From: Erysipelotrichaceae bacterium
GTDB lineage: Bacteria; Bacillota_I; Bacilli_A; Erysipelotrichales; Coprobacillaceae
Assembly: GCA_028698185.1 (NCBI GenBank)
Contig: JAQVDW010000010.1
Span: forward strand, 1 to 32,000
DNA: 32,000 bases
Direction of reading: 5' to 3'
Shown here: positions 853 through 8,521 of the stretch, in pieces
Layout: every line of letters starts with the position of its first letter
How positions within the stretch are numbered: the first letter of the stretch is position 1
The notes under the pieces: model-generated
Databases searched by the model: none
Seen by the model: the letters and a program-made list of their open reading frames with translations, nothing else
What the model was told of the DNA's origin: nothing
Position numbers and translations under genes: made by a program

Positions 853-3156
853 TCAAGCCTTGTCCGGTTTTTTTCCTGAACTTTTTCTGCGGCGGTTGAC
901 ATTTTTGGTTGATCCGCCTTTGGCTGGAGCTCCCTTGCCTTTATGGCGGCTTCTAGTCTTGAAGTTGTCCGGTTTCGGTTTTTTCTTGCCGAATTCTTCC
1001 TTGCCTTTATGCTGTTTTTGCGAGCTAGGATTGACCCGGCGTTTCTTGTTCGATTTGATCACCAGTTCAAAGTCAATCCGTTTTTCGGCTTTCGATGCCG
1101 ATTTGAGTTTGACTTTGACCTTTTGCCCCATGCCATAGACACTGCTGGTATGGCGGCCAATGTAACGAAGCTTCACTTCATCAAAGAAGTAGTAGTCATC
1201 AACCATGTCGACCACATGGACCAGACCTTCAATCGTATTTTCCAATTCGACGAACATCCCGAAGTTGGTGACTGAGGAAATGACCCCGTCGAAAACCTGT
1301 CCAACTTTCGCTTCCATGAATTCGGCTTTTTTCATATCTTCGACTTCACGTTCGATATCGATTGCCAACCGTTCATTGTCGCTGGATTTCAATGCCAGAT
1401 CCGGAATGACCGACTCGTAGTGGCGGATCGTCTTCATATCCATCCTGTTTTCAAACAGGTAGGTGCGGATCAGACGGTGAACCAACAAATCCGGGTACCG
1501 GCGGATCGGCGAGGTGAAGTGGGTGTAGAAATCGGCAGCCAGACCGAAGTGGCCCAGACAACTCTGGTCATATCGGGCTTTTGCCATGGAACGGAGCATC
1601 AGTGTCGCGATGACCTGATGTTCGTCCTTGCCCCTACTGTCCTCGATTATGGCAGCCAGCTGGTTTGGATACATGTCATCCAGCGAGCCATGAGGCCGGT
1701 AGCCAAAGGCCGAAGCGATTGAGAAGAACTTGACCAGTTTCTTGACATCGGGATGTTCATGGACCCGGTAAATGAACGGAACTTCCATCCAGTGGAACCT
1801 TTGGGCGATTGTCTCGTTGGCCACAAGCATGAACTCCTCGATAATCCGCTCACTGATACCTCTTGTTCTGACCACGATATCGACCGGGAACCCGGTCTCG
1901 TTTACCAGGACCTTGCTTTCATCGATATCGAAATCGATCGAACCGCGGCGGTCCCGGAATTTGCGGCGGATTGCCGCCAGGTCTTCCATCTGGTAGAACA
2001 TTTCGAGTACATCGTGATACTCGCTCATCAGCTGGGTGTCCCCGGCCAATATCTTGTTGACATTATTGTAGGTCATCCTGTGGGTCGACTTGATGATTGT
2101 CGGATGGATCTCGCTGCGGAGCACATCACCCTTATGGTCGATTTCCATAAAGCACGAAATCGTCAGTCGGTCGACCTGGGGATTGAGCGAACATATCCCA
2201 TTGGAAAGCTTGTGGGGCAGCATCGGAATCACCCGGTCAACCAGATAGATTGAAGTCCCACGTTCCACCGCTTCCACGTCCAGGGGACTGTCTTCAGTCA
2301 CGTAATGGGAAACATCGGCGATGTGGACTCCCAGGTAGTAATTGCCGTTTGGCAACTTTTCCAGTGAAATCGCATCATCCAAATCCATCGCGTCATCACC
2401 GTCGATGGTCACGATGGTCATGTCGGTCAGATCGAGACGGCCCTCATGTTCGGATCTGATAACCTGATCAGGGATGTTTTCAATCTGGTCAAAGACCGCT
2501 TTGGGGAATTCAATGTCCACACCATGGTCATAGACGATCGAGAGGATATCGATACCCGGATCGGTGGCATGGCCCAGGATTTTTACAACGTCGCCCTTTA
2601 AAGGCAGCTTGTAAACCTTGATTTCCACCACGACCTTGTGACCAGGCATTGCCCCATGGGCATGGGCCGCATCGACATAAATCTTTTCCTTGAACCTGGA
2701 GTCATCGCATTCGACATAGAGATGGTTGTGGCTGTTTTTCTTGACCAGTCCGACCACTTTCTTGCGGCCCCGTTCGATAACCCCGACAACCACACCTTCA
2801 GGCCGGCTGGCCCCATGCGCTGTCGTCAGCTTGATCAGGACAACGTCCTTGTCGAAGGCATCCTTGATGTTGCCCTTGTCGATAAAGACATCCTTTTCAT
2901 CCTCACCGATCTTGACGAAGCCAAAGCCCCGTTCATGAACCGACAGCGTCCCTAGACGCATGTCGAGCTGTTCGATCAGGAAGTACTGGTTGAACTTGTT
3001 GCGGTAGATCTTACCCGCCAGTTCAAGTTCGTTCAAAGCTTTGAGCAGTTCGTTGTTGTTGGCTCCCTTGTCGACACTAAAACTCGCTGCTATCTGGTCA
3101 ACGGTCCTAAGCAGATTCGTTTCATCTTTTAAATATTCTAAAATTTTTTCTTTCAT
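853..3156 (-). CDS. rnr: Ribonuclease R (3'-5' exoribonuclease)
   Basis: 767 aa. It has N-terminal HTH/cold-shock-like regions and RNB catalytic motifs (TIDGDDAMDLDDA; HFGLAADFYTHFTSPIRRYPDLLVHR). An S1 domain (GVISSVTNFGMFVEL) and a Lys/Arg-rich C-terminal tail follow. The RBS is AAGGAGGCAATA-ATG. It shows conserved synteny with smpB/ssrA. Confidence 0.95.
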   Translation of the reverse strand: MKEKILEYLKDETNLLRTVDQIAASFSVDKGANNNELLKALNELELAGKIYRNKFNQYFLIEQLDMRLGTLSVHERGFGFVKIGEDEKDVFIDKGNIKDAFDKDVVLIKLTTAHGASRPEGVVVGVIERGRKKVVGLVKKNSHNHLYVECDDSRFKEKIYVDAAHAHGAMPGHKVVVEIKVYKLPLKGDVVKILGHATDPGIDILSIVYDHGVDIEFPKAVFDQIENIPDQVIRSEHEGRLDLTDMTIVTIDGDDAMDLDDAISLEKLPNGNYYLGVHIADVSHYVTEDSPLDVEAVERGTSIYLVDRVIPMLPHKLSNGICSLNPQVDRLTISCFMEIDHKGDVLRSEIHPTIIKSTHRMTYNNVNKILAGDTQLMSEYHDVLEMFYQMEDLAAIRRKFRDRRGSIDFDIDESKVLVNETGFPVDIVVRTRGISERIIEEFMLVANETIAQRFHWMEVPFIYRVHEHPDVKKLVKFFSIASAFGYRPHGSLDDMYPNQLAAIIEDSRGKDEHQVIATLMLRSMAKARYDQSCLGHFGLAADFYTHFTSPIRRYPDLLVHRLIRTYLFENRMDMKTIRHYESVIPDLALKSSDNERLAIDIEREVEDMKKAEFMEAKVGQVFDGVISSVTNFGMFVELENTIEGLVHVVDMVDDYYFFDEVKLRYIGRHTSSVYGMGQKVKVKLKSASKAEKRIDFELVIKSNKKRRVNPSSQKQHKGKEEFGKKKPKPDNFKTRSRHKGKGAPAKGGSTKNVNRRRKSSGKKPDKA

Positions 3157-3178
3157 TATTGCCTCCTTGATTTAGGCC

Positions 3179-3204
3179 AAAAAAAATAGGACAGTATCGT
3201 CCTA
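3179..3204 (-). terminator. Rho-independent terminator after secG
   Basis: The minus strand reads TAGGAC-gatact-GTCCTA followed by an 8-nt T run, starting about 6 nt after the secG stop. Confidence 0.6.
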
Positions 3205-3209
3205 ATTTA

Positions 3210-3437
3210 CTACATTCTTAACAAGATTGCGACCACAAAGAATGCAATCCCCAACACAGTGGTGGCCCGAGTCATAATCAAATCGATGCCTCTTTCCTTC
3301 TGGTCCTGGAACAATGCCGATGACTGCCCAGTCAATGCATTGATGACACCTTCGGATTTTCCACTTTGTAATAAACATAGTATAGCAAGAACGATTGCGA
3401 TGATAAATTCAATTATCTGTAAAAATTCACCAAACAT
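3210..3437 (-). CDS. secG: Preprotein translocase subunit SecG
   Basis: Small two-TM protein, MFGEFLQIIEFIIAIVLAILCLLQSGKSEG...GIAFFVVAILL. The ATG at 3437 is preceded by AAGGAGGTATAGT. The position upstream of rnr matches the Bacillus order. The ORF-track start at 3473 has no RBS. Confidence 0.8.
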   Translation of the reverse strand: MFGEFLQIIEFIIAIVLAILCLLQSGKSEGVINALTGQSSALFQDQKERGIDLIMTRATTVLGIAFFVVAILLRM

Positions 3438-3461
3438 ACTATACCTCCTTCTTGTGTAACA

Positions 3462-3490
3462 AATATAACACAATTTTCATATTTTTTCAA
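3462..3490 (-). promoter_or_regulatory. Candidate sigma-A promoter for secG
   Basis: The minus strand reads TTGAAA - 17 nt - TATATT, with TGT immediately upstream of the -10 (extended -10). It lies about 25 nt upstream of the secG RBS. Confidence 0.4.
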
Positions 3491-3552
3491 CTCAATTAAT
3501 GATACCCCATCTATAAATCAAATACAAGAAATATTTGTTACCGGAGCGGATT

Positions 3553-3984
3553 TTACTGGTCGGACAATTCCTTAACCATAAGCACATGGGGCACATCTTC
3601 ATCGAGATAACTGTCGCCTAGAATCGTGAACCCCAGTTGTTCATAAAATCCCTGGACCCTGACCTGGGCTGAAAGATAAAGCCTGGCCGCCCCAAGACCT
3701 CGGGCATATTCGATTGCACATTTGAGGATCCGGGTTCCGATCCGGTTCTTGCGCCAGGGCTGGATGACCGCAATCCGCCCGACATGCCATGACTTTTCAC
3801 TTGGATCGTAATATACCCTACAGGTGGCAATTGCCACCTTGTCGTGGTACATGACCAGATGATGGGCCCGGTCATCGATCTCATCGAATTCGTTGACAAA
3901 ACTCTGTTCCTCCACAAAAACCTGCAAGCGAATCGCCTTGATGTCCGGCGTCAACTTGTCGTACACTTTTACAATCATTGCCAT
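3553..3984 (-). CDS. GNAT family N-acetyltransferase
   Basis: 143 aa. The acetyl-CoA-binding segment is IAVIQPWRKNRIGTRILKCAIEYARGLGA, in a typical GNAT beta-alpha layout. The start could instead be the ATG two codons downstream (3978), which has better SD spacing. Confidence 0.8.
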   Translation of the reverse strand: MAMIVKVYDKLTPDIKAIRLQVFVEEQSFVNEFDEIDDRAHHLVMYHDKVAIATCRVYYDPSEKSWHVGRIAVIQPWRKNRIGTRILKCAIEYARGLGAARLYLSAQVRVQGFYEQLGFTILGDSYLDEDVPHVLMVKELSDQ

Positions 3985-4158
3985 TACCCCCTTTTAATTT
4001 CTTAAATATTACCAAGTTGGGCGATAAAGTCAATTCATTTGCGCCAACATTCGGAATTAATTTTAAATTATCAAAATATATTTTCATATTTTGAAAATAA
4101 CAACCGTTTCCAGGGATTGGGTATATAATGGAAGTATAAAGACAAAGGAGATCCCAAC

Positions 4159-5256
4159 ATGCACAAATTAGGTATTTCGGTTTACCCTGACAAGAGTGAT
4201 TTAGATGAAGTATACGCATACGTAAAAAGAGCCAGCGAACTTGGTTATACCCGTATCTTCACCTGCTTTCTTTCAGTAGACAAACAAAGCCGATCTGAAT
4301 ATTTCAAAGTCTTCAAGAAGTTCAGCCAATACTGCCACGAATTAGGTTTCGAACTGGCTGTCGATACCAACCCTGAAATCTTTGCGGAAATCGGCGCGAG
4401 CCCTACCAACCTGCAGCCTTTGATCGACCTAGGTGTCGATATCATCCGTCTCGATGGCGATTTCTCGTTGCAGGACAATATCCTTATTTCCCGCAACCAG
4501 GACAATATCAAAATTGAATTCAATGCGAGCATGAATGCCGGACTGGACAATATGATCGCCTCAGGAGGCAACCGTGATGCAATCCAGGTGTGCCACAACT
4601 TCTATCCCGAACGCTATACCGGCCTGGATTTGCAACTGTATCAGGATCTAAACGACAAATGGAAAGACCTCAACCTGGTTACAGCAGCCTTCGTTTCATC
4701 GAACAATGACAACACCATCGGCCCATGGCAGGTGTTCTGCGGTTTGCCAAGCGTGGAAATCCACCGTGGCTTGCCAATTGACTTACAGGCCCGCCATCTG
4801 ATTTCACTAGGACAGCTTGATGACATCTTGATCGGAAATTATCCGGCTACTGACGAAGAGCTTGTGGCCCTGTCAAAGGTCAATTGGCAATATCTCGAGT
4901 TCAAGGTCGATATCGCAGCAGGTATCAGTGATCTTGAAAGGGAGATCCTGCTTGATTTCTTCCCACATATGGACCGGCCCGATTACTCAAGCTTCATGAT
5001 CCGCTCAAGCTATCCGCGGGTCAAATACAAAGGCCAACCGATTCCTCACCGCCCTATTGAAAAGGAATATTTCGAACCGGGCGACATCGTCATCGTCAAC
5101 GACAACCTGGCCCACTACCGCGGCGAACTTCAGATTGTCCTCGATTACATCAAGAACGACGGCGAGCGCAACCTGGTAGCGACCATCCCGGCTGAGGAAA
5201 TGGCTCTTATCGAAGCCTTCAAACCCGGACATTACTTCTATTTCACCGAAAAATAA
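4159..5256 (+). CDS. DUF871 / MupG-like protein (6-phospho-N-acetylmuramidase family)
   Basis: 365 aa. The N-terminus LGISVYPDKSDLDEVYAYVKRASELGYTRIFTCFLSV and the overall length and organisation match my recollection of the DUF871 (MupG) TIM-barrel family. The RBS is AAAGGAGATCCCAAC-ATG. Confidence 0.7.
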   Translation: MHKLGISVYPDKSDLDEVYAYVKRASELGYTRIFTCFLSVDKQSRSEYFKVFKKFSQYCHELGFELAVDTNPEIFAEIGASPTNLQPLIDLGVDIIRLDGDFSLQDNILISRNQDNIKIEFNASMNAGLDNMIASGGNRDAIQVCHNFYPERYTGLDLQLYQDLNDKWKDLNLVTAAFVSSNNDNTIGPWQVFCGLPSVEIHRGLPIDLQARHLISLGQLDDILIGNYPATDEELVALSKVNWQYLEFKVDIAAGISDLEREILLDFFPHMDRPDYSSFMIRSSYPRVKYKGQPIPHRPIEKEYFEPGDIVIVNDNLAHYRGELQIVLDYIKNDGERNLVATIPAEEMALIEAFKPGHYFYFTEK

Positions 5257-5260
5257 TCGA

Positions 5261-5289
5261 AAAGGAACCTGCAGGTTCCTTTTTTCGTT
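5261..5289. terminator. Bidirectional Rho-independent terminator (left repeat copy)
   Basis: AAAAGGAACC-tgca-GGTTCCTTTTTT: a perfect GC-containing stem flanked by an A run and a T run. It follows the mupG stop on the plus strand and lies downstream of the MazG-like gene on the minus strand. Confidence 0.75.
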
Positions 5290-5291
5290 AT
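5261..5291. repeat. Left copy of the 31-nt direct repeat bracketing the DUF2075/MazG islet
   Basis: aaaaggaacctgcAggttccttttttcgtta at 5261-5291 versus aaaaggaacctgcGggttccttttttcgtta at 7711-7741. That is 30/31 identical, and the single difference is in the hairpin loop. Confidence 0.9.
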
Positions 5292-5400
5292 GCTCAAAAA
5301 CAAAGAATAACAGACAATTAATATATGCTATATAATCGGTTTAACATTATCGTCAATTCAAAAGAAAAATATGTTATCAGATAATCAGTTTCTTCAATTA

Positions 5401-5718
5401 CTAGAGCGCATTGTATTTTTTACTGTTACCTTTTGACTTTTCGATTGGATACTTTTCCTCGTTCTTTTTCAATTTATTTGCGACAATTTGCTCCAGATCA
5501 ACATCCAGTTTGGAGGCAAGTAAAATGCTGTAATTCACTATGTCCGCCAATTCTTCGCATACAGCTTCTTTATCATATTCACTGCTCCACTGAAAGCATT
5601 CAAGCAATTCGCCTGCTTCAATGCAAATGCTTTTTGCCAAATTCTCAGGAGAATGGAATTGGTCCCAATCCCTGTCTTCATTGAACCTCATTATTTTTTT
5701 TGTAACATCTTCTAACAT
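5401..5718 (-). CDS. MazG-like nucleotide pyrophosphohydrolase (small all-alpha NTP-PPase)
   Basis: 105 aa: RFNEDRDWDQFHSPENLAKSICIEAGELLECFQW...EELADIVNYSILLASKLDVDLEQIV..KLKKNEEKYP. The ExxE(xxE) and EExxD metal-binding motifs of the MazG/dCTPase-like superfamily are present. Its start overlaps the stop of the upstream gene. Confidence 0.85.
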   Translation of the reverse strand: MLEDVTKKIMRFNEDRDWDQFHSPENLAKSICIEAGELLECFQWSSEYDKEAVCEELADIVNYSILLASKLDVDLEQIVANKLKKNEEKYPIEKSKGNSKKYNAL

Positions 5719-7586
5719 TCTCCTGTACTCCTGTTCAGTCTCATTTTCAAATATTCCCTAAGATTGTCATCTGTACAATAAATATAACAGCCTTTTTGAC
5801 CTCTTGTGAGCAGTGTTCTATATGTGTTCTTGATAAGCAAATCCGCCAATTTCAAAGTGTCTTCAGGATTTTTCTTAAATTGTGTCTTCAAGCCTCTGAT
5901 TGACCTGTCACTCGATGCCCTCTTGAAAAAGTCCGTCGTGATTTTACCATCTTCATAGCGGAGATCATCACCGATAATCACACCCACATAGTCGAATTCC
6001 AATCCCTGGGAAGTATGGATACAGCCAACTTCATTTACTGAATCTTCATCGATAGCCCAAGTCTTAGTTGATTCAAAGTTCCATGACATCTTGAAATCGC
6101 CAATTATGATATCCGGAGAATCGGATTTGTTCCGGGTACTTTTATTCCAGCCCCAACAATACCCGGCCAGAATACGTGATCTGTTGGCCATTTTATTTTT
6201 GTCCATTATTGCATTTTTCAATTCCACCGGATTATCAAATATTTCAATGTCATAATCGATATTCAATTCGTCATTTGCCGATTTTTCGATTTCCATGACA
6301 TTGTCAAGCCATGAAAGGTAGGCATCGCTGCCGTTACATCTAAACTGCGAGACCAATTTATCCTCGTAAACAATTGCATTGAAGTGCTTGCACCATTTTT
6401 TAATTTCCCCTGTAGAACCAATATCGTTGGTAGTGACAATTTGATTATCGTCAACAAAGAAAATAGCTAGTTTCGATGCATTAATAATTTCTTTAATCTG
6501 GTTTTCTCCCAAATTCTGATACCTCCCCGATTTCGCGTTCAATCGGTGTGCCTCATCGACTATTATGCAATCAAAATCATCTTCATTAGCTTCGATAAAT
6601 GACCCGGATCCCTTGAACAAATTGTCAATATAGACTTTCCGGTACCCTCCTTCTGATAGCTTTTTTCGATACACCTCGCGTGGAGCAATATTTTTCGTAA
6701 CATAAATAGTATTCTTTTCCTGGTTGATCATTTCAACCAACATGTTTATTGCAATAACCGTTTTGCCTGTTCCCGGACCGCCATGAATAATGTATACCTT
6801 TTTGCTCGCATAATTCTCTTTTGCCAATTTCAAAGCTTTTTCATAGGTAACTTTCTGCTCATCGAGCAAAACAAACTCCGGTTTCCCCTTGAGCATATTG
6901 CTAAGACTTTCCTGAAGTGATTTGCTAGGCTTGATTTTTCCGCCCTCTATATGACACATTACGTCGGGATTGCCTTTTTTGATATATTTAGCGATGTAAT
7001 TCCCCAACTTATCAGTGTCGCCTCGCGAAAACACAGGCGCCTGCTTCAGGTAGTATTCATAACACAGATCTAGAAGATCATCGTATTCCTTTTTCTTATA
7101 ATTATGCAAATAAGCACATGGATGCAAATCTATTTTGAACTTCCTTACATCTTCGTTGTAATCTCTAATTAAGCTGGCGTATGACCAAGCCTGATATGAA
7201 GGGTGGGTTACCTCGGCAAGTTTCCCGTTCAATAATGTTTTTACAATTGCATCCTTCCCCTCAACCTTTTCAAGACCCTGCCATTGCTTCAATTCAATTA
7301 TTACTGCATTTTCATTGCCATGTTCATCTTCACCACTGACAATAAAATCGATTCTCTTGTTTGAATTTGGAACTTTGTATTCTATTGCAATGTTGCTATC
7401 GCCTGGTATCGATGTGTTCTCGAGGACCTTGTACATGTACTGCATCGAATTCATCCAGGAATTATATTCACTTTGGCCGGTTTTTCTATTCAACCTTTCA
7501 AGCACCAATCTTTGAATTTTCTCATCAATTACGTCGTGGTAGACATCATCCAAAAACTGCGCTTTTGTCTCTTGATACACTATCAT
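5712..7586 (-). CDS. DUF2075-family (Schlafen group-3 helicase-like) P-loop ATPase with N-terminal PD-(D/E)xK-like nuclease motif
   Basis: 624 aa. Motifs are RID80FIV...VIIE98LK100QW (restriction-endonuclease-like), Walker A HGGPGTGKT (aa 268-276) and Walker B CIIVDEAH (aa 340-347). FFVDDNQIV, QFRCNGS, IHTSQGLEFDYVGVIIG and YRTLLTRGQKG are also present. The RBS is GAGGTATAACT-ATG. Confidence 0.85.
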   Translation of the reverse strand: MIVYQETKAQFLDDVYHDVIDEKIQRLVLERLNRKTGQSEYNSWMNSMQYMYKVLENTSIPGDSNIAIEYKVPNSNKRIDFIVSGEDEHGNENAVIIELKQWQGLEKVEGKDAIVKTLLNGKLAEVTHPSYQAWSYASLIRDYNEDVRKFKIDLHPCAYLHNYKKKEYDDLLDLCYEYYLKQAPVFSRGDTDKLGNYIAKYIKKGNPDVMCHIEGGKIKPSKSLQESLSNMLKGKPEFVLLDEQKVTYEKALKLAKENYASKKVYIIHGGPGTGKTVIAINMLVEMINQEKNTIYVTKNIAPREVYRKKLSEGGYRKVYIDNLFKGSGSFIEANEDDFDCIIVDEAHRLNAKSGRYQNLGENQIKEIINASKLAIFFVDDNQIVTTNDIGSTGEIKKWCKHFNAIVYEDKLVSQFRCNGSDAYLSWLDNVMEIEKSANDELNIDYDIEIFDNPVELKNAIMDKNKMANRSRILAGYCWGWNKSTRNKSDSPDIIIGDFKMSWNFESTKTWAIDEDSVNEVGCIHTSQGLEFDYVGVIIGDDLRYEDGKITTDFFKRASSDRSIRGLKTQFKKNPEDTLKLADLLIKNTYRTLLTRGQKGCYIYCTDDNLREYLKMRLNRSTGEC

Positions 7587-7617
7587 AGTTATACCTCATT
7601 AGTGCCTTTCTTTTCAC

Positions 7618-7646
7618 AGTATAACACAGGCCAGGTTTGTAAACAA
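7618..7646 (-). promoter_or_regulatory. Candidate promoter of the DUF2075/MazG cassette
   Basis: The minus strand reads TTGTTT - 17 nt - TATACT with TGT upstream of the -10 (extended -10). It lies about 30 nt upstream of the DUF2075 start, inside the islet and downstream of the right terminator copy. Confidence 0.45.
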
Positions 7647-7710
7647 TAATTTGATTTTAGTTTACTTTATCACCTGTCACATATAGGAAAACCAGTATTT
7701 TCAAAATCAA

Positions 7711-7739
7711 AAAAGGAACCTGCGGGTTCCTTTTTTCGT
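7711..7739 (-). terminator. Rho-independent terminator after the HAD gene (right repeat copy)
   Basis: AAAAGGAACC-tgcg-GGTTCCTTTTTT. On the minus strand the hairpin starts right after the HAD stop codon (7739-7741) and is followed by TTTTTTGATTTT. Confidence 0.7.
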
Positions 7740-7741
7740 TA
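7711..7741. repeat. Right copy of the 31-nt direct repeat bracketing the DUF2075/MazG islet
   Basis: See the left copy. The right end of this repeat (..cgtta) includes the TAA stop (minus strand) of the HAD gene. Confidence 0.9.
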
Positions 7742-8521
7742 GAAGAATTTATTGAGGGCCTTGAGCAGGCCGTCATCCATGAAATCGTCGGTGACATAGT
7801 CGGCGATCTGTTTGAGTTCGTCGACTCCGTTGCCCATGACCACACCACAGCCAACTGCCTTGATCATTTCGATATCGTTGTAGCCATCACCAAAAGCGTA
7901 ACTGTCGCTTATTTTCAGGTTGTAGTAAGCCAGGGTCTTCTCAATCCCCTGGGCCTTGGTGATGTCCTTCGAGTAGATCTCAAAAGCATTGATGGTCCCG
8001 TTGTAATCGTAGTTGAACTTGCCGTCGATCATCTCGATGAATTCATCGGCCAGATGGGCCGGCAGGCTTATTTCCATCTTGATGATCTTGTGGTAGACCG
8101 CCTTGTCGAACTCGCTGATGATATGGTCTTCCTTGATGTTGCATCTTTGGTAGAATTCCCAGAGGTTCGTGAACTGAGCCTTCAAGTAGCCATACTTGTT
8201 GTCCTGGAGGATGTATTCCACCTGATGGCTGTCAAGATAGCTGACCACTTCCTCGACGTTTTCTTGACCGAGGTAGTTCTCAAAGATCGATTTGCCCTCG
8301 ACCATCACATGGGAACCGTTCGCCATTACGAAACCGTCGAAGTCGAGCGATGTCAGGTATTCATTGACAAAGGCGTATGGCCTTCCAGTGGCGATGAACA
8401 GGTGGTTGCCTTTCTCCTTGATCTCATTCAACTTTTCAATAACCGCAGGCGGGATCTTGTCGACGCCCTTGTCGTTTTGGACCAGGGTCCCATCAACATC
8501 GAAAAACAATACTTTACTCAT
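7739..8521 (-). CDS. Cof-type HAD-IIB family phosphatase
   Basis: MSKVLFFDVDGTLV (motif I), IATGRP (motif II) and FGDGYNDIEM (motif IV). The ATG at 8521 has the RBS AAAGGAGAAAATTG. It overlaps the stop of the upstream gene (ATGAGTAA). Confidence 0.85.
   Translation of the reverse strand: MSKVLFFDVDGTLVQNDKGVDKIPPAVIEKLNEIKEKGNHLFIATGRPYAFVNEYLTSLDFDGFVMANGSHVMVEGKSIFENYLGQENVEEVVSYLDSHQVEYILQDNKYGYLKAQFTNLWEFYQRCNIKEDHIISEFDKAVYHKIIKMEISLPAHLADEFIEMIDGKFNYDYNGTINAFEIYSKDITKAQGIEKTLAYYNLKISDSYAFGDGYNDIEMIKAVGCGVVMGNGVDELKQIADYVTDDFMDDGLLKALNKFF

Follow-up and report, generated by a model that had tools for sequence, protein, structure and literature searches.

A DUF2075 nuclease-helicase paired with a MazG-like pyrophosphohydrolase: a candidate two-gene defense module in an Erysipelotrichaceae genome and its relatives in bacteria and archaea

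The 32,000 nt stretch of Erysipelotrichaceae contig JAQVDW010000010.1 that was analyzed here (referred to as the window) harbors a cassette of two genes and about 2.45 kb. The genes code for a large protein with, very likely, an N-terminal nuclease and with a DUF2075 helicase domain and for a small MazG-like nucleoside triphosphate (NTP) pyrophosphohydrolase. The pairing of these two protein families is real and widespread, and it is independent of gene order. As a tentative reading, to which we give slightly less than an even chance, we propose that the nuclease-helicase is a defense effector and that the MazG-like protein is its accessory, which removes modified deoxycytidine triphosphate (dCTP) from the nucleotide pool.

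A scan of one genome per species with the alignment of the nuclease-helicase family resulted in 80 loci with 28-57% identity. They stem from bacteria (Bacillota, Pseudomonadota, Bacteroidota, Verrucomicrobiota, Spirochaetes, Chloroflexota, Actinomycetota, Saccharibacteria, Omnitrophota and Planctomycetota) and from archaea (Methanomethylophilaceae, Methanobrevibacter and Thermoplasmata). A hidden Markov model (HMM) of the MazG partner had exactly one match within 10 kb in 46 of these loci (58%), and in all 46 the match was on the same strand as the helicase gene, which random placement would produce with a probability of about 1e-14. The mazG-like gene was located directly upstream of the helicase gene in 31 loci, directly downstream in 11 and further off in the remaining 4. 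The order helicase-then-MazG of the window was also present in the 81%-identical copy L204, in a 78%-identical Thomasclavelia copy and in a 75%-identical copy, while the 68%-identical Faecalitalea-type copies had the order MazG-then-helicase with a 4-nt overlap. As a rule, the partner genes of related loci overlapped (-1 to -23 nt) or were separated by at most about 20 nt. The pairwise identities of both partners were correlated (Mantel r 0.36, reached by none of 2000 permutations), a correlation that may stem in part from shared host phylogeny. No conserved alternative partner was present in the 34 helicase loci lacking MazG. Present in 58% of the loci, MazG accompanies the helicase frequently but not obligatorily.

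We also looked at the pairing from the side of MazG. The alignment of 37 MazG sequences was too diverse for a pattern scan, and a trimmed alignment was used for this reverse test. It comprised 80 MazG relatives, the closest ones present in metagenome contigs (54-72% identity); many of these contigs are short. A gene of the DUF2075 family abutted about 50 of the 80. Among the complete neighbors, 16 were full-length proteins of the window type and 22 were other DUF2075 helicases, and 8 neighbors matched GIY-YIG. The co-localization that the initial annotation of this DNA had named as a check was observed in both directions. Locus L164 (5331-7103) codes for a confirmed GIY-YIG-DUF2075 fusion, and some DUF2075 partners of this MazG clade carry GIY-YIG in place of the PD-(D/E)XK-type domain; in L130 and L162 the partner has an unannotated N-terminus of about 180-200 aa. 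As judged from these sequences, the nuclease head of the helicase partner of MazG is interchangeable. In five metagenome loci (L132, L134, L136, L137 at 5324-6115, and L138) the mazG-like and the helicase gene are separated by a conserved open reading frame (ORF) whose product, about 264 aa long, has transmembrane helices at its N-terminus. It had no sequence match in the PDB. An assignment to ARMT1/DUF89 was ruled out, as the product is a predicted membrane protein. These loci may represent a three-gene variant.

The large protein matched the Pfam family PF09848 (SLFN-g3_helicase/DUF2075) with an E-value of 3.2e-104 and 349.4 bits (cut-off 24 bits), and all 354 profile positions were aligned to aa 262-606. 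The helicase motifs HGGPGTGKT (268-276, with K275), CIIVDEAH (340-347) and QFRCNGS (414-420) are followed by the C-terminal motifs IHTSQGLEFDYVGVIIG (523-539) and YRTLLTRGQKG (589-599). Among 51 relatives with 29-78% identity, G272, G274, K275, D344, E345, Q382, R416, Q527 and R595 of the helicase were invariant. A structure model calculated with AlphaFold2 (AF2) from an alignment of 81 sequences had a predicted local distance difference test score (pLDDT) of 88.4 and a predicted template modeling score (pTM) of 0.87; an earlier model from 17 close homologs (pLDDT 48.9) was discarded. When the PDB was searched with Foldseek, the superfamily 1B (SF1B) helicases DSH9, SLFN11, Dna2, RecD2, Upf1 and Dda (E 1e-7 to 1e-11) as well as RecD, IGHMBP2 and nsp13 were retrieved. 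Sequence searches of the PDB with the protein and with the family profile gave matches at the level of the P-loop only. Motifs and model indicate an SF1B fold with two RecA-like lobes, Walker A and B motifs, and the Q and R motifs.

The N-terminal domain harbors the motifs RIDFIV (78-83, with D80) and VIIELKQW (95-102, with E98 and K100), and E69, R78, D80, E98, K100, W102, H128 and P129 were invariant in the same 51 relatives. In the AF2 model the core has the topology alpha-beta-beta-beta-alpha-beta; strand 2 has D80 close to its beginning, and strand 3 contains E98-x-K100. Since this topology and the placement of the residues correspond to the PD-(D/E)XK arrangement, the domain is very likely a PD-(D/E)XK-type nuclease, although a formal fold match was lacking: Pfam gave only sub-threshold matches (NERD, E 0.012; PDDEXK_3, E 0.11). 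The NERD+UvrD model of PADLOC matched aa 67-314 with an E-value of 8.5e-6. The description of the large protein in the initial annotation as a helicase of the DUF2075/Schlafen group 3 type with a nuclease-like N-terminal motif is borne out by the Pfam match, the conserved motifs, the AF2 model and the Foldseek result, and all motifs that it named, including the acidic residues of MazG, are located where it had placed them.

At 90% identity the DUF2075 branch of the window protein falls into over 8000 clusters, and at 50% identity it has 4444 representatives. A C-terminal Peptidase_S24 domain of the LexA/UmuD type is present in many full-length relatives of about 785-826 aa and 35-51% identity (P0243, P0245, P0247, P0252, P0304, P0333 and P0372; loci L037-L039, L047, L049, L054 and L087), and several of them also have a MazG neighbor. 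This extension suggests a control linked to RecA and single-stranded DNA in the sister branch. That these relatives of about 800 aa were fusions to MazG was ruled out, as the extension is the Peptidase_S24 domain; one relative (P0279) is a fusion to a PIF1-like helicase. A second, divergent DUF2075 paralog of about 690-730 aa is encoded beside the first one in L090, L095, L097, L098, L043, L060, L082 and L210, mostly in Actinomycetota.

The small protein matched PF12643 (E 1.5e-20, 73.6 bits; cut-off 27) and PF03819 (25.9 bits; cut-off 22), and E34, E37, E40, E55, E56 and D59 were all present. Its sequence is 100% identical to that of a protein assigned to an uncultured Erysipelotrichaceae bacterium. 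The closest relatives with solved structures were mouse RS21-C6 and human DCTPP1 (PDB 2a3q/6sqw), which were aligned over nearly the full length (E 2.8e-20). In this alignment E34, E37, E56 and D59 correspond to E63, E66, E95 and D98, and the aromatic residues W18, W44 and Y63 to W47, W73 and Y102; all seven are conserved among the partner MazG proteins. From the structural literature on RS21-C6 we take these residues to be those that bind metal and contact the substrate. Among the 37 partner MazG proteins from diverse phyla, E37, E56, D59 and K82 were invariant, and F12, R16, W18, F21, H22, E34, F42, W44, A58, Y90 and P91 were conserved in at least 90%. Among phage protein families, the protein matched PHROG 3301, a pyrophosphatase. 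By its sequence the small protein is a MazG-like, all-alpha NTP pyrophosphohydrolase with an intact ExxE...ExxD metal-binding motif, in agreement with the initial annotation, and a clear homolog of DCTPP1/RS21-C6. DCTPP1, RS21-C6 and the Nudix enzyme Orf135 of E. coli are described as highly specific 5-methyl-dCTP hydrolases that sanitize the nucleotide pool (PMC10742078). In L121, L124, L125 and L126 (about 2965-5988) a MazG-like gene (63-64% identity) is located downstream of a pair of genes for a Y-family polymerase (IMS) and a YolD-like protein and upstream of an unannotated ORF of 220 aa; the helicase gene is absent from these loci.

The cassette is compositionally foreign. Its GC content is 37.4%, compared to 46.5% and 50.4% in the flanks, and GC at third codon positions is 0.42 versus 0.58-0.71 in neighboring genes. 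Close relatives (75-78% identity) were found in other contexts. One identical relative protein occurred in two settings, beside SNF2-PLD, SbcCD and HIRAN genes or beside metabolic genes; the pair of another close relative directly follows NUDIX and PLD-helicase-DUF3427 genes. Relatives were present on 98 plasmid records, archaeal ones included, and the copy on a Hymenobacter plasmid adjoins a restriction-modification pair. They were rare in phage data (4 of 50,697 phage records, and 15 of 2.9 million viral contigs with at most 36% identity), and a phage replication module was ruled out by this rarity. Microcystis phage Mwe-JY31 (L209, PP438423.1; 22 kb, deposited as a complete phage genome) has a MazG-then-helicase pair at 5648-7863, with a helicase 48% identical to that of the window; none of the genes of this phage has an annotation other than hypothetical. 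We concluded that the cassette was horizontally acquired, as the initial annotation had inferred, and that it is mobile and patchy across lineages.

Defense genes were frequent around the family members. The 110 nearest neighbors (two per side of MazG-positive loci) matched 253 PADLOC models at E ≤ 1e-10 and 110 distal neighbors matched 117, counts that are qualitative, come without a genome-wide baseline and include generic models of PADLOC. The matches of the nearest neighbors included type IV methyl-directed restriction enzymes (mREase_IV), type II methyltransferases, PD-Lambda-5, AbiEi and several PDC candidates; those of the distal neighbors included QatAB, AbiP2 and other DRTs, Old, dGTPase and AriA. 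Since the neighbor matches were strong and varied, many copies lie in defense islands. The Thomasclavelia copy adjoins genes for a reverse transcriptase and an HD-CE protein: in L005 (6270-9868; also in L006 and L007) the pair directly follows an RVT_1 reverse transcriptase of 354 aa and an HD-CE protein of 856 aa, downstream of a DnaG-like primase. These neighbors are probably another defense system. The family shows the general features of defense systems, namely a conserved operon, a mobile and patchy distribution and defense genes as neighbors. The defense-island context for which the initial annotation had asked applies to many family members across phyla. The copy in the window, which is fixed in its species, stands by itself with housekeeping genes on both sides and is not part of such an island.

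Several observations point to modified DNA. Phages escape the Nhi-like system, which is described below, by loss of a DNA methylase, from which the authors concluded that methylation sensitizes phages to this system. In L168 (152-2911) a type IV restriction enzyme with GmrSD_N, GmrSD_C and DUF5655 domains is encoded about 370 nt upstream of a MazG-like gene, and L117 (1350-4298) has the gene order Mrr_cat restriction nuclease, MazG-like protein, Schlafen AlbA_2-domain protein. Type IV mREase models were, as mentioned, among the matches of the nearest neighbors. A parallel module consists of a NUDIX protein (128-132 aa) and a 949-aa protein with PLD nuclease, DEAD helicase, DUF8090 and DUF3427, and looks like a NUDIX analog of the MazG arrangement. 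Restriction enzymes that depend on DNA modification can carry DUF3427, and, as Lutz et al. (PMC6765204) noted, such enzymes frequently neighbor DUF2075 proteins. We draw the link to modified DNA because of the escape by methylase loss, the GmrSD and Mrr_cat neighbors of the MazG clade, the NUDIX-DUF3427 module and the DCTPP1 lineage of MazG. By analogy to these systems, the nuclease of the window may depend on DNA modification.

We infer an anti-phage function with the following logic of self-protection. The large protein would be the effector, which translocates on invading DNA at the expense of ATP and cuts it, most likely with a preference for DNA with modified cytosine or for intermediates of phage replication. 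MazG would convert 5-modified dCTP, and possibly also dCTP, to the monophosphate. In this way it would keep modified cytosine nucleotides, which phages may synthesize or which may be salvaged when modified DNA is degraded, out of the host DNA, and the nuclease would spare the cell's own genome. At the same time, phages that make their DNA with modified dCTP would be starved of it.

Some results weigh against this proposal. In the window the cassette is flanked by genes for tmRNA, SmpB, RNase R, a GNAT acetyltransferase and MupG on one side, and for a Cof-type HAD hydrolase, a CNNM/CorC transporter, MreB, NadE and AddAB on the other side; these are housekeeping genes, and there is no defense island. 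By exact protein look-ups, every contig with the identical MupG or HAD protein also has the cassette, and no empty insertion site was found among these contigs; the 81%-identical copy of the sister species is at the same site. The cassette is fixed in the species, which is not the typical flux of defense genes. No modified-base reader domain (SRA, PUA, DUF3427 or DUF262) was detected in the large protein. The substrate specificity of MazG cannot be read from the sequence, and other MazG enzymes cleave canonical deoxynucleoside triphosphates (dNTPs) or ppGpp. The escape by methylase loss concerns a distant relative with only about 21% identity to the window protein, and the type of methylase is not stated in the available part of that source. 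The searched literature contained no experimental data for the family of the window. The contribution of host phylogeny to the Mantel correlation and the qualitative nature of the neighbor counts also count on this side.

MazG could instead be the effector itself, if the nuclease-helicase senses foreign nucleic acid and then activates or scaffolds MazG for depletion of dCTP or dNTPs upon infection. We consider this reading, the main rival of our proposal, unlikely. Depletion of dNTPs is a proven strategy (dCTP deaminase, dGTPase), and the overlap of the genes suggests matched co-expression and possibly a complex. In addition, MazG-like domains occasionally replace the dNTP-degrading effector in PUA-calcineurin-HAD systems, in rare predicted cases (10.64898/2026.01.15.699771), and MazG is one of the predicted, unvalidated defense domains of DefensePredictor (PMC13092281). 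However, the MazG of the cassette is a bare catalytic domain of 105 aa that lacks a regulatory module, 42% of the relatives do without it, and the large protein retains a nuclease site of its own with invariant residues. Members of the MazG clade are also found next to GmrSD, Mrr and Y-family polymerase genes where no helicase is present, which fits a constitutive enzyme better. We favor a constitutive sanitizer over a triggered effector because MazG is dispensable, is a bare catalytic domain and is also present in operons with Y-family polymerase and YolD genes, and further because the Nhi-like protein protects alone and the MazG-less loci have no conserved substitute. Of the roles that the initial annotation had left open for MazG (depletion, sanitation or destruction of a signal), the evidence favors sanitation of the pool over bulk depletion.

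It is quite improbable, in our view, that the cassette is a module for DNA damage or replication stress, in which the nuclease-helicase would process stalled forks or damaged DNA in the manner of SLFN11 and MazG would clean up aberrant dNTPs. The S24 peptidase domain at the C-terminus of sister branches, the operons of the MazG clade with Y-family polymerase and YolD genes, and the fixation of the cassette among housekeeping genes, with AddAB at a distance of 6 kb, would all fit such a role. But S24 domains and SOS links are also found in the regulation of prophages and defense, and the patchy distribution, the foreign composition, the differing contexts of close relatives, the plasmid copies, the frequent defense genes nearby and the homology to the Nhi-like protein, with its demonstrated anti-phage phenotype, argue against it. 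The E. coli mazG gene is located in the mazEF operon, and E. coli MazG acts on ppGpp. With this precedent, and given the tight operon coupling and the adjacency in either order, the pair could be seen as a potentially lethal nuclease-helicase toxin that MazG restrains by destroying a nucleotide signal or alarmone. This we regard as highly improbable: the small protein is nearest to DCTPP1-type dCTP pyrophosphatases and not to E. coli MazG, relatives lacking MazG are common and have no substitute partner, and the conserved module has no enzyme that would generate a signal.

Returning to the proposal of an effector with a sanitizing accessory, it can be extended to a wider one, which we regard as rather doubtful. 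The pair would be an immune module of two genes, as yet without a name, that is widespread in bacteria and archaea, and it would follow a general rule by which enzymes directed against modified DNA are accompanied by a small (d)NTP pyrophosphatase, MazG or a NUDIX protein beside DUF3427, which keeps modified nucleotides from the host genome and from the phages. The pairing of an SLFN11-type helicase with DCTPP1, two genome-guardian activities of human cells, would then have a prokaryotic origin. If the proposal were true, nuclease-helicase immunity would gain a further layer of mechanism: a defense effector would be paired with an enzyme policing the nucleotide pool instead of a methyltransferase or an antitoxin. 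Restriction-like systems would then have a hitherto unknown means to prevent damage to self, and phages with modified cytosine would be hit in a new way. A very abundant DUF2075 branch would also be given a function, and Schlafen-type helicases and DCTPP1 would have models in bacteria. Being self-contained and only 2.4 kb long, the module can be cloned easily.

The features of the cassette are listed in Table 1. Both minus-strand ORFs and the overlap of stop and start (ATGTTAG, 7 nt) are exactly as initially annotated. The overlap makes translational coupling of the two genes probable. In L198, L202 and L203, from the same species as the window, MazG is called as a protein of 96 aa with a start 21 nt past the helicase stop and no overlap. 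As the MazG start differs in these loci, the geometry of the coupling varies within the species.

Table 1. Features of the nuclease-helicase/MazG cassette. Coordinates refer to positions in the 32,000 nt window; for the module in the last row, loci and positions are given.
Feature	Position	Strand	Basis
Nuclease-helicase gene	5712..7586	minus	ORF listing: 624 aa, ATG start
MazG-like gene	5401..5718	minus	ORF listing: 105 aa, ATG start
N-terminal PD-(D/E)XK-type nuclease core (very likely), ~aa 38-160 (E69, D80, E98-x-K100)	7107..7475	minus	conserved residues and predicted topology
SF1B helicase/ATPase domain, aa 262-606 (K275, D344/E345, Q382, R416, Q527, R595)	5769..6803	minus	PF09848 match
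7-nt overlap of helicase-gene stop and MazG start (ATGTTAG)	5712..5718	minus	sequence read; GGAG motifs precede
Putative cassette promoter: TTGTTT, 17 nt, TGtTATACT (extended -10)	7618..7646	minus	read by eye
Ribosome binding site GAGG of the cassette	7594-7597	minus	read by eye
Terminator hairpin and copy 1 of the 31-nt direct repeat, common to the convergent MupG and MazG genes	5260..5290		repeat search; terminator-like site 5283-5260
Copy 2 of the 31-nt direct repeat, terminator hairpin after the HAD hydrolase gene	7711..7741		repeat search
NUDIX + DUF3427 module of related loci	L205 1476-4714; L206 2719-5957 (directly beside the pair); L014 1-2773 (~7 kb upstream of the pair)		

It is plausible that the cassette has an extended -10 promoter and a ribosome binding site of its own. 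The putative promoter was missed by the consensus scan because its -35 hexamer matches in 3 of 6 positions only. A 31-nt direct repeat brackets the cassette; it consists of two near-identical terminator hairpins (30 of 31 nt identical) with a spacing of 2451 nt. In the sister species (L204) the hairpin on the HAD side differs from that of the window. A target duplication, a recombination scar or convergence are candidate origins of the repeat pair. At the edge of the window the tmRNA gene (2-350) is adjacent to the genes for SmpB, RNase R and SecG. The DNA past the tmRNA gene varies by strain, with DUF6618 and an N6/N4 methyltransferase or a serine recombinase and an S24 repressor (L016, L017), as is typical for an integration hotspot at tmRNA.

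The system most similar to the large protein is the Nhi-like protein of Bacillus cereus FSL H8-0482, a single-gene anti-phage system of 611 aa with an N-terminal nuclease and DUF2075 (Millman et al. 2022). In both proteins an N-terminal domain of the PD-(D/E)XK nuclease type, which in the window protein is very likely, precedes the SF1 helicase with DUF2075. A comparison of the window family to the first 399 of the 611 Nhi-like residues by hhalign resulted in a probability of 98.9% (E 2.6e-17, 312 columns), and the match spanned, in collinear order, the nuclease motif (EY..P..RxD / VIExK) and, in the N-terminal helicase lobe, Walker A and B. Because of this collinear profile match and the low identity, we place the window protein in the Nhi-like superfamily as a distant member, outside the B. 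cereus subfamily. In contrast to the window gene with its conserved MazG partner, the Nhi-like gene was cloned and was active without MazG.

Nhi of Staphylococcus epidermidis (SERP2475; Bari et al. 2022) likewise combines a nuclease and an SF1B-type helicase overlapping DUF2075 in one chain, and also has no MazG partner. The PADLOC model of Nhi (PDLC02372) covered only aa 192-465 of the window protein (profile positions 139-375 of 470, E 2.6e-16), and the nuclease and the C-terminal lobe were not matched; the best E-value of this model among the 51 relatives was 1.3e-18. By this measure the window protein does not belong to the staphylococcal Nhi family as modeled in PADLOC. The likeness to Nhi suggested in the initial annotation holds as collinear homology to the Nhi-like protein, while the match to the staphylococcal model is confined to the N-terminal lobe of the helicase. 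The PADLOC models AbiO, Nhi and PDC-S41 gave only partial matches (E about 1e-16), and this was also the case for all 51 relatives. The MazG protein had no match in PADLOC v2.0.0 at E ≤ 0.01. Since a full-length match was lacking for the window protein and the 51 relatives, the family is not represented in PADLOC v2.0.0. The initial annotation knew of no named system with this composition, in agreement with our searches of PADLOC v2 and the literature. No paper in the searched literature joins DUF2075 with MazG, Schlafen with MazG in a relevant sense, or DCTPP1 with phage defense, and the available part of the DefensePredictor text does not describe the pairing (PMC13092281).

The eukaryotic group 3 Schlafens SLFN11, SLFN5 and SLFN13, which have a role in antiviral defense and replication stress, share the helicase domain of PF09848, and SLFN11 was the second-best Foldseek match to the window protein in the PDB (E 1.9e-10). 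The template modeling scores were low (about 0.35), because the helicase core alone superposes. Instead of the Schlafen-core/AlbA_2 RNase domain, the window protein has an N-terminus that is very likely of the PD-(D/E)XK type. Compared to mammalian DCTPP1/RS21-C6, the MazG of the window lacks a loop insertion of about 10 residues and the N- and C-terminal extensions and, unlike these enzymes, is coupled in an operon to a nuclease-helicase. The likeness to type IV restriction consists in the GmrSD and Mrr_cat genes found beside members of its MazG clade. The nucleotide-depletion defenses (dCTP deaminase, dGTPase, and the MazG variant of PUA-calcineurin-HAD) likewise use a nucleotide-degrading enzyme in an immune context, but the pyrophosphatase of the window is an optional small accessory of a nuclease-helicase and is neither fused to nor paired with a sensor domain. 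Nuclease-helicases of this kind are already known from Nhi and the Nhi-like protein; what appears to be new to the literature is their conserved coupling to a DCTPP1-like enzyme in both bacteria and archaea.

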